From positions 96,001 to 160,000 of the forward strand of contig CAVSQW010000007.1 in the NCBI GenBank assembly GCA_963730185.1: 64,000 bases of DNA, in the 5' to 3' direction. The position numbers and the translations under genes were made by a program. This document shows positions 35,538 through 50,774 of the stretch, one piece after another. A model generated the notes under the pieces. It had not been told where the DNA came from and did no database searches. It worked only from the letters and a program-made list of their open reading frames with translations. Position 1 is the stretch's first letter. The number at the start of each line of letters is the position of its first letter. The stretch comes from an uncultured Gemmatimonadales bacterium (GTDB lineage: Bacteria > Gemmatimonadota > Gemmatimonadetes > Gemmatimonadales > GWC2-71-9).

Positions 35538-37372
35538 TCAGGTCAGCGAGGCGATCTCCAGCCGGGCGGCGGTGCGGTAGGCCACCCGCTCGGCGAACTC
35601 CCGGGTCAGCTCCCCGATCATCGCCCCGGGGGCGGTGAAGGAGAGCGCCGACTCGGTCCGGGCCCGCCCCAGCGCGGCCACCAGCTCCAACAGCGATTGC
35701 GCCAGGCGGTCCCGGGCCTCCTCGGTCCGGGTCACGCCGGTCCACCAGCCGGCCGGCAAGGCGGGCTGGTAGGCCGAGTCGATCCGGAGCCGAGCCAGGT
35801 GGTGGTCCAGGGCGGCGAGCTCGGACGCCGTGTCCGCCGCCGCCAGGGCGAGGGGCTCGAGCTCTTCCAACAGGCGGCGGCGGGTGCGTTTGCCGGCCTC
35901 CCGGGCCACCAGCTCCCGGCTCAGCCGAGCGACGTCGGCCAGCAGATCGCGGGCGGAGCCCGGCGGGAGCTCCGCGAGCCGGTCGCGGAGCGCCGCCGGC
36001 AACTCGACCGCTTCCGAATCGCGGGTCCGGGTCAGGATCGCGGGTCGCTGGAGCTCCAACCGGGCGGCGGCCAGGAGGAGCCCGGCCATGGCCGGCCCGG
36101 TCCAGGCGAACCACGGCGCCGCGACCCGGCCCGCGACCAGTCCCGCCAGTGCCACCGCCGCCACCAGGAGATAGAAGCTCGACGGAATCGCCGTCCAGAA
36201 GCCCGCCTCCGTCCGGGTCGCGACCCGAACGTCCCGGTCGCGGAGCCACTGGGCCAGCGCGTCGGCGCGGGTGGCCGGCACCCGGATCAAGGGGCGATGT
36301 CCGGCCGCGGCGTCGGCCAGGGCCGCGGCTTCCGAGAGGCCGGGGTGGAGCGCTACCAGCTCGGCGATCGTGGGGTAGAAGGACGGGCCGGCGTGCTCCA
36401 CGAAGAGCAGCCGCTGCCCGTCGCGGTCGGCGGTCGGGTCGCAAGCCTCGCAGAGCGGCGATCCCGGCAGGGCGGCTGTGCCGCAGATCATGCAGCGCGC
36501 CTGGACCGGCCGGGCCGCCGGTTCCGGCGCGACGTCCGGCTCGGTGTCGGGTCCCCTCAGGCCGGCGATCAGCCCGTCCGCCGTGGTGAACCGATCCTGC
36601 GGGGCAGCCATCGTGGCGGCCGCCACCACCTCGTCCAGCCAGGCCGGGATCTCGGGGCGGACCTCCCGGGGATGGAACCCGCCGGCGAGCGGGGTCGGCG
36701 GGAGGTGCAAGGGGTGATCCGGCAGCCGCCCCGTCAGGGCCTCGAACAGGGTCATTCCCAGGGAGTAGAGGTCGCTCCGGCCGTCACCGCGAGCCCCCGC
36801 CAGGACCTCGGGCGCGGCGTACCCGAGGGTGCCCGCCAGGCGCCGGTGGCGGTGAGGGACGGCTGACCCTCGGCCCAGGCAGAGCCGAAGTCGGTGAGGA
36901 AGGCGGTGCCTCGCTGGTCGAGGAGCACGTTCTCGGGCTTCACGTCCCGGTGCAGGATCCCCTCGCGGTGCGCCGCGGCGAGCGCCGATGCGACCATGGT
37001 GGCGGCCGCCACCGCGTCGTCGATCGCGAGCGGTCCATCCCGGACCAGGCGCCGCGCCAGGTCGGTGCCCCGGATCAGGTCCATCACCACGAGCGACCGG
37101 CCCTCGTCGTCGAGGTAGTCATGTACCCCGACCAGATTCGCGTGGTGGAGGCCGCGAACCAGCTCCACCTCGCGGCGGAGCCGCTCGCGGGCCTCCCGGG
37201 CCCTGGCGGGCGGGGGAACCAGCAGCTTCAGCGCGATTTCCCGCCCCACCAGGGTGTCCCGCGCCGTGTAGACGATGGAGTGGGCGCCCCGGCCGATCTC
37301 GCCGATGATGACGTAACGCCGGGCCAGGATCACTCCGGCCGTCAAGCCGACGTCCGGATCGATCGCGGTCAT
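35538..37372 (-). pseudogene. Ser/Thr protein kinase with Zn ribbon, TM hairpin and helical tail; single frameshift
   Basis: IGRGAHS, ALK, HRDVKPEN and DFG. Adding one C at ~36840 gives GALAGTLGYAAPE...SDLYSLG in frame with ORF 35538..36755, which carries CMIC..CEAC. Confidence 0.85.
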
Positions 37373-45213: not shown

Positions 45214-48200
45214 TCAATCCGAGCGCATGACCGCCACCGGATCGACCCGGGTCGCCTGGCGGGCCGGCACCCAGGAGGCGATCAGGGCGGTCGCGAGCAC
45301 CCCGAGTGTTGCCAGACCGTAGGTCAGCGGATCGTGGGTATCGATGCCGAACAGCTGCGACTCGATCAGTCGGGAGCCGGCGACCGCGAGGCCGAGGCCG
45401 GCGACCGCCCCCAGCGCGACCGGGAGGATTCCCTGGATCACGACCTGGCGCCGAACCCCCCCGGGGCTGGCGCCGAGCGCGAGCCGGATCCCGATCTCCC
45501 GGTGGCGCTGCTCCACGGCGTGGCGGAGCACGCCATGCAGCCCGACACCGGTGAGTACCACCGTGGAGACCGCGAAGAGAACCAGCAGCGTCATCGTGAG
45601 TCGCTGCCGGGCGGTGCTCTCCCAGAGGAGTTGGCGGACCGGGTCGATCGAGACGGTCGGCACCGCGGCATCGATCCTGGTGAGTACCGTCCGGAGCGCC
45701 GGCGTCAGGGCGTCGGGCGCCAGCGACCCCCGGATCAGCAGCGTAGCCCGCGTGGTCTGGTCGTCGAAAGGGTGATAGAGCTGGAAGTCGTCGACGCCGA
45801 GCGCCCCGAGGCCGAGGCCGGCGGCGGTGCCTGCCACCCCGACGATTCGGAGCCAGCGTTTGCCGTCCAGCCGGATCCGGCCACCGACGGCACCTCCCCG
45901 GGGCCAGAACCGTCGAGCCAGGCGATCGTTGATGATGACGGCGTCGGGCTCTCCCTCTGGAAACGTGGGGTCGAACGAGCGCCCGGCCAGGATCGGAACG
46001 CCCAAGGTCCGGAAATAGCCGGGGTCCACCTGGTTGGAGGCGAAAACCCTCGGGGTGTCGCCTGGCGTCAGCGTCAGGCCGTCGACCTCGAGTGAGCCGA
46101 ACTCGATCCCGAGCTGAGGTGGCGAGTTGTCGGCCAGGGTGGTGCCCGTCACCCCCGGGATGGCCTCGGCCTGCTCGGTCAACGCCCGATAGAAAGGCGG
46201 CCGCGACGGGCCGTTCGGATACCGCCAGCTCGGGAGATCGATCGACACCGCCGTCAGCTGGTCGGCGGCAAAGCCGACGTCCGCCGTGGTGAGGTTCCAG
46301 ACCGTTCGGACCAGGAGGCCGGCCCCGACCAGGAGGGTGAGCGACAGTCCCGCTTCGAGCCCGATCACCAGCCGCCGCAGCCGAGGGGCCCGATCGGCGG
46401 ACCGTCCCCCGCTCCTGAGGAGCCCGGGCGTACCCATTCGGCTGGCGCGCCAGGCGGGGACCAGCCCGGCGATCAGCGCCACGATCAGCGTCAGGGCCAG
46501 CGCGGTGGCCAGCGAGCGGTGATCGAGTCGCACCGTCGCCAGCGCGGCGAGCCCGGGCCCCCGGGGAGGGTTGGCCGCCACGGCCCGGAGGAGCGAGGCC
46601 CCGAGAGCGAGGCCGGCGAGCCCCCCGAGCGCCGCCAGCACCAAGGACTCCACCAATCCCTGGGCCAGGAGGCGAAGCCGAGACGCGCCCAGTGCCGCCC
46701 GGGTCGCGAGCTCGCGGGAGCGCTCCACCGCCCGGGCCAGCAAGAGGTGGCTTACGTTAGCCGAGGCCACCAGCAGGAGGACGCCGACGGCGGCCAGGAG
46801 GGCATAGAGGCTCTGCACCGTCCCGCGCCCGATCAGGTCGGCCGGCGTCGCCACCGTCATCGTCCAGTCCTTGAAGTCCGGATCGTCGGCTGCAACCGCA
46901 GCCGAGATCACGGCCAGCTCGCGATTCGCCTGGACCGGCTCGACGCCGGGAGCGAGACGGGCCAGCATCTGGATCGAGCGGGACGGCGGGAGGCTCGACT
47001 CCGGCGGAATCGGGACCCAGAGGTCGATGGACCCGCTCAGCCCGGGGACGGTCCGGAGGGTCGCCGGTGCGATGCCGACAATCCGGTACGGCTCGCCGTC
47101 CAGCGTCATCGTCCGGCCCACCACGCTCGAGTCGCGCCCGAACCGGCGGACCCAGAGGTCACGGCTCAGGATGGCTACCCGGGTGCCCTCGACTCGCTCG
47201 GCCCGTGAGAAGGGCCTCCCTCGGAGGAGCGGCACCCGGAGAAAGTCGAAGAACCCGTCGGCGACGCGGACCGCCGTCAGCTGCTCGGGGTCGAGGGCGC
47301 CGCCCAGCACCATCGTCTGCCGGTCGTACGGCTCGACCCTGGTGCCGCTCCCGAGGCCTCGCCGGATCTCGGGCAGCAGCCGGGCCGGGGGGAACGATCG
47401 AATGGTGCTGGACGCCGTGAGCCGCTTGGTCTGGAAGATCGGAGTGAGCCGGTCGGCGTCCGGCAGCGGGTAAGGCTGGACCAGCATCCGGTCGACCACG
47501 GTTCCCATGGCGGTCGCCCCGCCGATCCCGAGCGCCAGGGTGAGCACCGCGGTGACGGCGAGGCCGGGTCGGCGGCGGAGCGAGCGAAACGAGATCTTGA
47601 GGTCGTCCCTGAGGGCGACGAGCTGATGCCGCACGGTCGAGACCTCCGGCTGGGTCGAGCGGACGGGCGCCTGCCGCGGGCTCCCGACCCGCCGCCAGGG
47701 CCACCGGCGCCGACCGCCGGCGGTCCGAAGCTCGGCGACCAGGGCCAGGGCGGAGCCGAAGCCCCCATCCTCGGCGCGGCGGAGCAGCGCTTGCTGCGCG
47801 GCGGTCGCGCCGGTCCCGAGCCACCCCGCGGCCAAGGCTGCCAGGGCCCGGCGGTCGGTCGCGGGGCCGGACTCGCCGGCGGGATCGGGGTCCAGGCCGC
47901 CCGCGAGGATCGTAACCCGGTCTCCCGTGAGCCGGATCGTCTCGGGGGAGAGGGCGCCGTGGACGGCGCCCCGCTCGTGGGCGAAGTCCAGGGCGGCTGC
48001 GACCGTCTCCAGCGTCGCCACCGCCCGAGCCGGGTCAAGCGGACCGGCCTCGGCGACGACCTCGTGGAGCGGGCGGCCCGGGGCGGGGGCCGCCGCCAGG
48101 TAGAGGCGGCCGGCCGCCTCACCGGCATCGACGATCGGCGCGATCGCGGGATGGTGCGGCAGCCGGATCCAGGCGCCGACCCGGCGGAAGAAGGCGCCGC

Positions 48201-48582
48201 CGTCGGCCGGGGCTACCCGCTCGGGATCGAAGAGGCGGAGCTCGGTGCTCCGTCCGAAGCGGCGTCCCCGGGCGGCGTACCACTCGCTCCCGCGGTCGCG
48301 ACGGACGATCCCGTCCACCAGATAGCGCTCGGCCAGCGCGGAGGCGACCCTTGGGTCGGGGACCGGCGGCCCGGGCTCGATCTGAAACAACTCGTCGAAC
48401 GAGACCTCGAACAGCGCCAGGAGCCGCTCCCGGGTCCGGGCCGACGGGCTCGGATAACGGCCCCTGAGCAGATTCGACCAGTGGCCGCGCGAGATCCCCA
48501 GCCGGATGGCCAGATGGTTCTGGCTCAGCGGGCTTCTGGCGACGAGGTCGCGGAGGCGGTCGAGTCGGACGGTGATCCGCAT
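45214..48582 (-). CDS. HTH + pseudokinase + duplicated MacB/FtsX (ADOP-type) permease fusion
   Basis: LSQNHLAIRLGISRGHWSNLL (XRE-like HTH); degenerate kinase ALAERY...VHGALSPETI; TLALGIG, RELATRAALGA, REIGIRLALGA and VPARQATRVDP permease motifs. Confidence 0.85.
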   Translation of the reverse strand: MRITVRLDRLRDLVARSPLSQNHLAIRLGISRGHWSNLLRGRYPSPSARTRERLLALFEVSFDELFQIEPGPPVPDPRVASALAERYLVDGIVRRDRGSEWYAARGRRFGRSTELRLFDPERVAPADGGAFFRRVGAWIRLPHHPAIAPIVDAGEAAGRLYLAAAPAPGRPLHEVVAEAGPLDPARAVATLETVAAALDFAHERGAVHGALSPETIRLTGDRVTILAGGLDPDPAGESGPATDRRALAALAAGWLGTGATAAQQALLRRAEDGGFGSALALVAELRTAGGRRRWPWRRVGSPRQAPVRSTQPEVSTVRHQLVALRDDLKISFRSLRRRPGLAVTAVLTLALGIGGATAMGTVVDRMLVQPYPLPDADRLTPIFQTKRLTASSTIRSFPPARLLPEIRRGLGSGTRVEPYDRQTMVLGGALDPEQLTAVRVADGFFDFLRVPLLRGRPFSRAERVEGTRVAILSRDLWVRRFGRDSSVVGRTMTLDGEPYRIVGIAPATLRTVPGLSGSIDLWVPIPPESSLPPSRSIQMLARLAPGVEPVQANRELAVISAAVAADDPDFKDWTMTVATPADLIGRGTVQSLYALLAAVGVLLLVASANVSHLLLARAVERSRELATRAALGASRLRLLAQGLVESLVLAALGGLAGLALGASLLRAVAANPPRGPGLAALATVRLDHRSLATALALTLIVALIAGLVPAWRASRMGTPGLLRSGGRSADRAPRLRRLVIGLEAGLSLTLLVGAGLLVRTVWNLTTADVGFAADQLTAVSIDLPSWRYPNGPSRPPFYRALTEQAEAIPGVTGTTLADNSPPQLGIEFGSLEVDGLTLTPGDTPRVFASNQVDPGYFRTLGVPILAGRSFDPTFPEGEPDAVIINDRLARRFWPRGGAVGGRIRLDGKRWLRIVGVAGTAAGLGLGALGVDDFQLYHPFDDQTTRATLLIRGSLAPDALTPALRTVLTRIDAAVPTVSIDPVRQLLWESTARQRLTMTLLVLFAVSTVVLTGVGLHGVLRHAVEQRHREIGIRLALGASPGGVRRQVVIQGILPVALGAVAGLGLAVAGSRLIESQLFGIDTHDPLTYGLATLGVLATALIASWVPARQATRVDPVAVMRSD

Positions 48583-48749
48583 GGGGCTCGCTGGCGATGG
48601 TGGCACGCCGGCGCACCGGGGTCAAGGCCTTCGCGCCACCAGGTGTTTCGCAACGTTCGGTGAGGCCGTTCCGGCGGCCGGGCGGGGCGGCTTGCCCCCC
48701 CGAAACGGGCGGGCTTACCCTTCGACCGACCCATTCCGAATGGACTCCG

Positions 48750-49126: not shown

Positions 49127-49489
49127 ATGCCGAGACTGATCGCCGGCCCGACCATCGTGGAAGCCGCCGGCAACCCGCCGAAGCGGATCGAGGAGTTCGT
49201 CGGCCGGGTCAACTCCGCCCACCAGGCCGTGAGCGTCGCCCGGATGGTGTCGCCCGGTGGCTGGCAGGAGCCGGGCCAGCGTCCCGGGTTCGAGGAGATC
49301 ACCGTCGTGCTCCGGGGGCTGCTCCAGGTGGAATACGAAGGCGGAACGATGCAGGTGCGGGCCGGCCAGGCGGTGGTGACCGCGGCGGGCGAGTGGGTTC
49401 GCTACAGCACGCCCGGTGAGGATGGCGCCGAGTACCTCGCCGTCTGCCTGCCCGCCTTCTCTCCCGCGACGGTTCATCGCGATTCCTAG
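49127..49489 (+). CDS. Cupin domain protein (EutQ-like)
   Basis: KRIEEFVGRVNS, GWQEPGQRP.FEE and VCLPAFSP. Confidence 0.85.
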   Translation: MPRLIAGPTIVEAAGNPPKRIEEFVGRVNSAHQAVSVARMVSPGGWQEPGQRPGFEEITVVLRGLLQVEYEGGTMQVRAGQAVVTAAGEWVRYSTPGEDGAEYLAVCLPAFSPATVHRDS

Positions 49490-49490
49490 C

Positions 49491-50774
49491 ATGGACCGGG
49501 AACGGTGGCGACGCCTCGAGGAGGTGTTCGACCGGGCCAGCCGGCTCACCGGCGACGACCGCTTGGCGTACCTGGACCGGTCCTGCGTTGGCGATCCCGA
49601 GCTCCGCCGCGAGGTGGAGACCTTGCTCGGGGCCGACGATCATCCCAGCGGCTTCATCCGCCGGCCGATCCTCGACGCCGCGGCGCTCCGGCTCCAGACC
49701 CCGGTGCCCCCCGGTACCCGCTTCGGCGCCTATCGGGTCCTCCGGCTGCTCGGTCGGGGCGGGATGGGGGTCGTGCTGCTGGCCGAACGGGCCGACCAGG
49801 AGTACCGGGCCAAGGTGGCGATCAAGGTGCTGGACGGGGCCATGGCCACCGCGCGCGATGCCCGCCGCTTCCGGGTCGAGCGCCAGATCCTGGCCGACCT
49901 GGACCACCCCAACATCGCCCGGCTGCTCGACGGCGGCACCACCGAGGACGATCTGCCCTACGTGGTGATGGAGTACGTCGACGGCGAGCCGATCGACGAA
50001 TACTGCGACCGTCACCAGCTCTCGGTCCGCCAGCGGGTGGATCTCTTCCTGGCCGTAGGCGACGCCGTGGACCACGCCCACAGCCGCCACGTGATCCACC
50101 GGGACATCAAGCCGGGCAACGTCCTGGTCACGAGCTACGGCGCCCCCAAGCTGCTCGACTTCGGGATCGCCAAGCTGACCGAGCCGGAGCCGGGCGCCGA
50201 CCTCCCCCGGACCACGACGACCGGCGCGATCCGGATGACCCCGCACTACGCCAGTCCCGAGCAGCTCCAGGGCGGCCCGGTCACGGTCGCCACCGACGTC
50301 TACTCGCTCGGGATCCTGCTCTATCGCTTGCTGGTGGGGCGGCTTCCCTACCGGTTCCGGAGCCCGACGCCGATCGACATCGCCGACGTGGTGCTCCGCT
50401 CGGAGCCGGAACGACCGAGCGACGCCCTGACCCGGAGTCACGATACCGAAACCACCGCCGGCGCCGCCGAGCTGGCGGCCCACCGGGGGCTGTCGGTCCG
50501 CCAACTCCGGAAGGAGCTCCGCGGCGACCTCGACGCGATTCTGCTGACCGCGCTGGCCAAGGATCCCGCCGCCCGCTACCCGGGGGTGGTGGACCTGGCG
50601 CGCGATCTCAGGCGCCACCTGACCGGCATGCCGATCGGGGTGGTGCCGAGCCGGACCGCCTACCGGACCGGCAAGTTCCTGCGTAGGAACGCGGCTCTGC
50701 TCGGCTGGATCGGCTTTGGGGTGGTGACGATCGTGATCCTGACCGTGGTGGTGACCCTGGCCTTGATCCGCTGA
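49491..50774 (+). CDS. Membrane-anchored Ser/Thr protein kinase
   Basis: LGRGGMG, VAIK, HRDIKPGN, DFG, YASPE and DVYSLG; ends in a single TM helix. Confidence 0.93.
   Translation: MDRERWRRLEEVFDRASRLTGDDRLAYLDRSCVGDPELRREVETLLGADDHPSGFIRRPILDAAALRLQTPVPPGTRFGAYRVLRLLGRGGMGVVLLAERADQEYRAKVAIKVLDGAMATARDARRFRVERQILADLDHPNIARLLDGGTTEDDLPYVVMEYVDGEPIDEYCDRHQLSVRQRVDLFLAVGDAVDHAHSRHVIHRDIKPGNVLVTSYGAPKLLDFGIAKLTEPEPGADLPRTTTTGAIRMTPHYASPEQLQGGPVTVATDVYSLGILLYRLLVGRLPYRFRSPTPIDIADVVLRSEPERPSDALTRSHDTETTAGAAELAAHRGLSVRQLRKELRGDLDAILLTALAKDPAARYPGVVDLARDLRRHLTGMPIGVVPSRTAYRTGKFLRRNAALLGWIGFGVVTIVILTVVVTLALIR

Follow-up and report, generated by a model that had tools for sequence, protein, structure and literature searches.

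How would a single protein work that joins a DNA-binding head, a dead protein kinase and a duplicated ABC permease with no ATPase gene beside it? The question is raised by one gene, on the reverse strand at 45214..48582 of the window (the whole stretch of DNA analysed, 64,000 nucleotides of contig CAVSQW010000007.1 from an uncultured Gemmatimonadales bacterium). An earlier note on this DNA had proposed a membrane-tethered one-component regulator, with the permease as receptor and the pseudokinase as adaptor. The tethered regulator has since gained a conserved architecture (216 clusters) and a cognate upstream site, whereas the adaptor role found no support as a design principle, nor did signalling in place of transport. 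The reading that we favour, and regard as moderately probable, is a positive autoregulator tethered to the membrane: the permease, by its state, would control two helix-turn-helix (HTH) heads on two repeats, and the kinase would be optional, and dead in this copy.

One reading frame and its family

Between 48582 and 45214 the reverse strand is one open reading frame (ORF) of 1,122 amino acids with zero internal stops, and HTH_31, kinase models and TIGR03434 match its three parts, as the earlier note had read them. An upstream GTG at 48606 is a possible alternative start; the start of relatives aligns with the ATG at 48582. The parts are as follows.

45214..48582, reverse strand: full ORF P0001, HTH plus pseudokinase plus ADOP permease (sequence, Pfam, NCBIfam)
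48373..48582, reverse strand: XRE/Cro-type HTH, residues 1–70, N37 variant (Pfam, alignment, AlphaFold pLDDT 94–98)
47890..48345, reverse strand: pseudokinase N-lobe to beta8, residues 80–231 (alignment, AlphaFold, Foldseek)
47635..47889, reverse strand: shortened, remodelled lower C-lobe and linker, residues 232–316 (alignment; low-confidence prediction)
45214..47613, reverse strand: duplicated MacB/FtsX (ADOP) permease, residues 324–1122 (NCBIfam, Pfam)

The head matches Pfam HTH_31 at residues 9–64 (E 3.8e-8, 33.9 bits against a gathering score of 27) with a predicted helical fold, which agrees with the XRE-like domain first noticed there. The permease is likewise the complete two-fold MacB/FtsX protein that had been described: TIGR03434 (ADOP) covers residues 324–1122 over model positions 1–803 (701.8 bits, cut-off 622.3), and Pfam finds two MacB_PCD and two FtsX domains, with 8 predicted transmembrane helices (8 hydropathy peaks). 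A DNA-binding domain and transmembrane segments lie within the same ORF, as in a transmembrane transcription regulator.

An assembly or gene-calling artefact that joined separate genes is barely credible. Contigs from two public soil runs, about 95–98% alike, cross the HTH–kinase joint (48270–48647) and bridge the linker–permease joint (47532–47715 and 47686–47868), gap-free at both, and hundreds of relatives are collinear with the window protein. What can be said for an artefact is that no independent contig spans the whole gene, the pieces shown leaving 47869–47975 and 48253–48269 uncovered. Three single-base gaps at 48057–48063 (one contig each, in the two runs) were set aside as other DNA because the piece listed matches only in part, over 37 nt, and its ends are loose. 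The G+C content at third codon positions (GC3) is 0.9 along the entire ORF. Among 40 listed of 111 strain differences, 20 fall in the ORF (12 silent, 8 missense, 0 stop) and 2 within the kinase, too few for an estimate of selection.

The architecture is shared widely. A search that started from the first 90 residues of an intact relative found 216 clusters at 90% identity, and the 120 listed are nearly all of about 1,200 amino acids with a kinase, MacB_PCD and FtsX. Among 1.84 billion representatives searched with an HTH-only profile (the best 150 of 730 listed), a second branch came to light, HTH-ADOP without a kinase, in which a linker of about 20–65 residues separates the HTH from ADOP. All stored proteins with this HTH comprise 149 intact HTH-kinase-ADOP, 3 defective, 80 HTH-ADOP, 9 partial-kinase proteins and 30 fragments. 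The kinases look active in 149 of the 152 stored kinase-bearing relatives, mainly Gemmatimonadota, which keep K, HxD and DFG; Lys, HCD and DFG are also present in 72 of the 73 genome loci long enough for judgement. The HTH and the permease are thus the core of the family and the kinase is optional, because 80 relatives do without it and nearly all others keep it intact; the same two counts make the dead kinase a lineage-specific loss.

The catalytic loop of the 124 aligned relatives reads HCD in 121, HGD in 1 and is broken in 2, so that the family kinases are non-RD, a pattern other than the HRD of 52 of the 59 kinase hits in the source genome. One member on a long branch (L054 / P0222) is the only kinase-bearing protein seen with HRD instead of HCD. 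The HTH-kinase-ADOP gene occurs in 14 of 401 sampled Gemmatimonadota genomes (one match weak), in at most 7 copies each. Of nine kinase-free proteins looked up, 2 have a taxon name, both Acidobacteriota, and HTH matches occur in 9 of 401 Acidobacteriota genomes, three of which hold 16–20 copies, mostly in frames of about 900 amino acids. In these three (G445, G554 and G773), the copies read differ in operator and in recognition-helix residues, which suggests insulated paralogues. No conserved neighbours of family genes were found in the loci read. Pairs of an ECF-like sigma factor gene and a kinase gene with tetratricopeptide repeats flank two members, on a reading of the sequence (L016:2059-5273, L016:10673-13739 and L018:10359-13381).

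A tree of the HTH (69 columns, 101 rows, midpoint root) was drawn from 30 earlier kinase-bearing rows taken at random, all later ones and 46 long kinase-free rows. The kinase label needs 2 changes on it, the kinase-free rows are more diverse, and the window HTH lies inside a group of 51 kinase-bearing rows with a support of 96.

The HTH head and the repeat upstream

As far as sequence goes, the family is a constant head on variable permeases, since the HTH has a median identity of 69% whereas the permeases are 31.6% identical to one another (and 32.2% to free ADOPs). The best permease matches fall mostly within class (113 of 136).

Upstream of 62 of the 78 genome loci with enough flank stands a direct repeat, CGAAC-N5-CGAACACTTT, with a period of 10, compared with 7 of 6,532 control windows. 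Most of the 16 loci that miss the exact repeat have one-base variants, and the kinase-free genes have related variant repeats upstream; in three kinase-free members (L150, L156 and L163) the period is 13, not 10. Of the 10 exact matches in five genomes, 7 stand ahead of a family gene.

The repeat also varies together with the head. Operator sites were aligned by an ad hoc score that kept 91 of 106 distinct rows and dropped 15 for a poor site match. Ser32 of the HTH pairs with GAGCAC (5 of 5, against 0 of 86), and Asn37 pairs with G-A at positions −1/0 (7 of 7, the window gene included, against 2 of 84). The carriers of Ser32 are L126, which is nested among Arg32 rows in a starred clade, L082 elsewhere, and three kinase-free loci; those of Asn37 are a pair of kinase-bearing loci, three kinase-free ones whose site is related, a fourth (L177) and the window gene. 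Each pairing draws on at least two to three lineages. The upstream repeat is thus statistically shown to be family-specific and to co-vary with HTH residues 32 and 37, and the head likely binds it.

Activators usually bind above the −35 box. Past the site, a −35-like word follows at 15–17 nt in 30 of 77 loci and a TAnnnT box at 39–41 nt in 40 of 77. Regulation is probably positive autoregulation, because the site ends about 16 nt above the −35 box, in the position of an activator. Two candidate elements lie ahead of the window gene.

48640..48660, reverse strand: candidate operator, direct repeat CCGAAC-GTTG-CGAAACAC-CTG (matrix score, co-variation)
48597..48625, reverse strand: candidate sigma-70-type promoter TTGACC, 17 nt, CACCAT (sequence; family spacing profile)

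TTGACC lies at 17 nt and CACCAT at 40 nt from the operator, at the family-typical distance; a consensus promoter scan upstream of the gene gave 0 sites, the candidate falling below threshold. No RNA that carries the gene was listed, which is no evidence on expression either way. The window site (48660–48640) is a GAAACAC variant and the window HTH carries Asn37, so head and site still match. With the operator matrix, no convincing second target, and hence no wider regulon, was found in the source genome. One other genome (G365) has three extra exact matches, located within unrelated genes or ahead of them, where the control gave 2. Two AT-rich stretches in the very GC-rich genome G000 (C12:427022 and C7:716403) are possibly foreign DNA or bin contamination.

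The dead kinase and the internal start

The kinase part is matched weakly by Pfam (Pkinase, residues 143–216, E 0.01) and more clearly by NCBIfam Ser/Thr kinase models (E 4e-11). On the alignment with 124 relatives, in family numbering, the Gly loop has become G93R/G95D/G98S, with K115R, E133R in alphaC, D208A, K210S, N213T and AGG for DFG. None of ten catalytic or ATP-binding residues, picked from established kinase motifs, survives, whereas 26 of the 53 other sites that are conserved do (p 0.004; in total, 26 of 63 conserved residues of the kinase), which agrees with the earlier claim that every catalytic element named there is lost and leaves the domain without the residues of an active Hanks-type kinase. 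The hydrophobic core fared otherwise, 42 of 53 of its columns still being hydrophobic compared with 12 of 71 polar columns. Mean identity is 0.32 in the N-lobe and 0.26 from alphaD to beta8 (family medians 0.69 and 0.58), and the frame stays open although identity falls to about 30%. Compared with relatives, the stretch from kinase to permease has lost about 70 residues, and ADOP begins at residue 324 rather than at about 390–407.

AlphaFold, from an alignment that included 37 intact-kinase relatives, folds residues 1–231 confidently and residues 232–302 poorly (pLDDT below 50 at 232–282 and 284–302), and Foldseek matches the predicted kinase part to PknB (E 4e-10), PknI and PknA. The structure check upholds the proposed fold as far as residue 231 and is of low confidence beyond it, and a Hanks-fold pseudokinase can be assigned to residues 80–231, in a model guided by intact relatives. 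With none of the ten residues kept, the core columns retained and these predictions, catalysis is gone, as judged on the alignment, and the upper fold is probably kept. For the origin of the domain, scores (family maximum 66.8, median 53.5 bits; the genome's other kinases maximum 60.2, median 40.8) are poorer evidence than collinearity and the HTH tree.

Two further proteins with defective kinases, P0084 (small catalytic-loop lesion) and P0164 (large internal deletion), may be sequence errors. A metagenome scan for dead-kinase relatives gave 1 distant kinase match among the matches listed, and a DNA search of 21 congeners found no syntenic copy of the window gene. Elsewhere in the window, an intact-looking kinase with a similar N-terminus lies 0.8 kb upstream at 49416–50774 and could act in trans. 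A Ser/Thr kinase gene at 37372–35538 on the reverse strand is split by a frameshift near 36800, its N-terminal 206 amino acids (Pkinase E 1e-30) continuing in another frame into a 405-amino-acid ORF.

Could the pseudokinase be a selected adaptor, for partner binding or dimerisation, that is needed to relay the permease signal here? The earlier note took it for one, and loss concentrated on the catalytic residues, the kept hydrophobic pattern and the kinase-like fold of the N-lobe to beta8 are all points in its favour, as is the plant receptor kinase EFR, a non-RD kinase whose catalytically deficient variants still signal according to the accessible text of PMC8463890. As a design principle of the family, the adaptor is not supported, given the 149 intact kinases and the 80 relatives without such a domain; for the window protein, the searches gave a single dead-kinase lineage, most of the lower C-lobe has been deleted, any domain that sits within an indispensable fusion should keep its fold as well, and the structure prediction was built on an intact-kinase alignment. 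We regard a selected adaptor as improbable. The dead kinase fits a tolerated folded spacer and is compatible with an adaptor role too.

A further feature lies between the kinase remnant and the permease.

47632..47647, reverse strand: candidate internal translation start for a permease-only product, GGAGG at 47647–47643 and GTG at 47634–47632, codon 317 (sequence, family enrichment)

Immediately ahead of the permease, 19 of 27 kinase-free genes (two of the 27 are mis-anchored misses) and 39 of 69 kinase-bearing genes have a start codon with a Shine–Dalgarno-like word of at least 4 nt, compared with about 7% of control positions (58 of 857 and 158 of 2,284, respectively). This suggests that a head-less permease is made besides the full protein; alternatively, the internal start is a relic of the original gene start.

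The good internal GGAGG and GTG bear on another explanation, that the whole head is decaying in the source organism while the permease alone still works. A quick tree leaves the window gene unplaced on the family's longest branch (3.46), its HTH has a mean identity to the family of 0.55 (median 0.69, at least 0.59 in every other member), and its operator is degenerate. Set against this are 316 codons without a stop or frameshift despite a change of about 70% of the residues in the kinase, a GC3 that stays high throughout, an HTH that has changed far less than the kinase (it retains 25 of 33 family-conserved residues), and the match that persists between HTH variant and operator variant. Decay of the head is accordingly given very little weight beside the autoregulator with a dead but folded kinase.

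The permease, its ATPase and known systems

As the earlier note had observed, neither an ABC ATPase nor a PadR gene adjoins 45214..48582; the flanking genes are a YgfZ/GcvT-like gene and two cupin genes, and a profile search gave no TIGR03433 (PadR) match near C7:141-145 kb. Such a locus does not imply that the permease has no ATPase, because both ATPase-coupling motifs are intact (residues 621 and 1026), a MacB-type ATPase lies within 6 kb of the family gene in 6 of 80 loci, and the source genome holds an operon of an HlyD-like adaptor, a MacB-type ATPase and two ADOPs (G000 C12:68.9-77.7 kb). This operon accounts for both of the 2 ADOP matches, out of 67 in the source genome, that lie within 6 kb of a MacB-type ATPase, and its ATPase and adaptor (C12:75.6-77.7 kb) are candidates in trans. 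By the sequence evidence, orphan status more likely means a shared ATPase motor than none, and the same observations leave the proposal that these permeases signal rather than transport unsupported. Downstream of the operon lie a second ATPase-like match and a response regulator.

The intact coupling motifs raise the converse explanation, an autoregulated transporter without sensing, in which export or extraction of the MacB/YbbP kind is the function and the tethered HTH only sets its own expression level. The closest solved structures by PDB sequence match are MacB, in those 6 of 80 loci the family gene stands at the head of, or next to, a cluster with an ATPase (plus adaptor), and the internal start would supply a plain permease. 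For such a purpose a free repressor such as PadR would suffice, and 31 of the 67 ADOPs here have one within 600 nt upstream; moreover, the activator geometry and the kinase kept in nearly all kinase-bearing relatives suggest a signal path. A transporter that does no sensing is unlikely on balance, if the least unlikely of the alternatives.

We therefore return to the autoregulator. The fusion is one frame in a conserved family with kinase-bearing and kinase-free branches. The head would bind the repeat above its own promoter and activate its own gene according to the state of the permease, the permease would dock a MacB-type ATPase from another locus, and two heads would be brought together on two repeats when a ligand binds or ATP drives movement, while a second ribosome start would yield a permease without the head. 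The kinase would have entered an older HTH-permease gene by a single insertion, to serve as an optional module for tuning; in the window lineage catalysis would have been lost and the remnant kept as a folded spacer, so that the window protein would behave like the kinase-free form.

Several observations weigh against this reading. Of 33 conserved residues the window HTH no longer has 8; the gene's operator lacks the T-tract and scores 16.2 bits, where 57 of 58 family sites score 21–37, and is the second-best site in the genome, one intragenic site reaching 19.7 bits; and the −10 box is weak. Across the family, 3 of 10 exact repeat matches are not ahead of a family gene, and kinship inflates the co-variation p-values. 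Protein searches with residues 1–300 and 1–100 found no further dead-kinase relative, and the direction of kinase gain is conditional because the 69-column tree is rooted at its midpoint.

A broader reading is tentative, and we would sooner doubt than assert it: that ADOPs of soil and sediment bacteria form a large receptor repertoire, with variable periplasmic sensor-permeases, one shared ATPase motor, interchangeable heads (free PadR, fused XRE-HTH, fused HTH plus non-RD kinase), a residue–base code for each gene's own operator, and dual products, each gene giving a head-bearing and a head-less permease. In the window protein the relay would outlive the kinase, and would therefore be conformational rather than based on phosphorylation. 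Genomes of Acidobacteriota and Gemmatimonadota carry dozens of ADOP copies, as the source genome illustrates. A fused regulator with a defined operator would turn each ADOP permease into a reporter assay, which, if true, would be the first readout for a large unstudied permease family of soil bacteria. The natural series of no kinase, intact non-RD kinase and dead kinase also allows one to ask whether mechanical action of a type VII ABC permease, with no phosphorylation, is able to drive transcription.

Literature searches found only two passing mentions of ADOP permeases. PMC3914696 describes an ADOP cluster that is highly translated and whose role is unknown; no description of HTH-ADOP or HTH-kinase-ADOP fusions was found, subscription journals and supplements lying outside coverage. 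Among known systems, the permease part is a full member of ADOP (TIGR03434), which is known with PadR (TIGR03433); PadR-ADOP has a separate PadR, whereas the window protein has an in-frame fused XRE-type HTH, its own direct-repeat site and, in the family, an optional kinase. With the type VII ABC systems YbbAP-TesA and MacAB-TolC it shares a duplicated permease, two periplasmic domains and two coupling helices (YbbP has an internal duplication and two coupling helices in the accessible part of PMC12646458), and differs in its 8 predicted transmembrane helices against 10 in YbbP, in having no dedicated ATPase gene and in its cytoplasmic head. With the Hanks-type PknB, PknI and PknA it shares the kinase fold, although the window copy lacks the catalytic residues and much of the C-lobe; the family kinases are non-RD (HCD), like receptor kinases such as EFR.

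ToxR and CadC are transmembrane transcription regulators. Proteins of this kind join a DNA-binding domain and a membrane or extracytoplasmic part in one chain, as the window protein does, but here a whole type VII ABC permease forms the membrane part; the main text of the survey PMC10269533 does not use the word 'permease', its supplements lying outside coverage. In Bacillus subtilis, BceAB and BceS assemble into a sensory complex with mechanotransmission, according to the accessible text of PMC7828314. The shared point would be a MacB-like permease that steers a kinase and hence its own transcription. The window protein differs in being a single chain, in having a Hanks-type (here dead) kinase or none in place of histidine kinase and response regulator, in its two periplasmic domains and in an ATPase that is usually not adjacent in its family; a histidine kinase and response regulator with an adjoining BceA ATPase were not found at the locus. 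By analogy, the window protein would act in the manner of a membrane regulator of the Bce or ToxR type, and it belongs to neither group.

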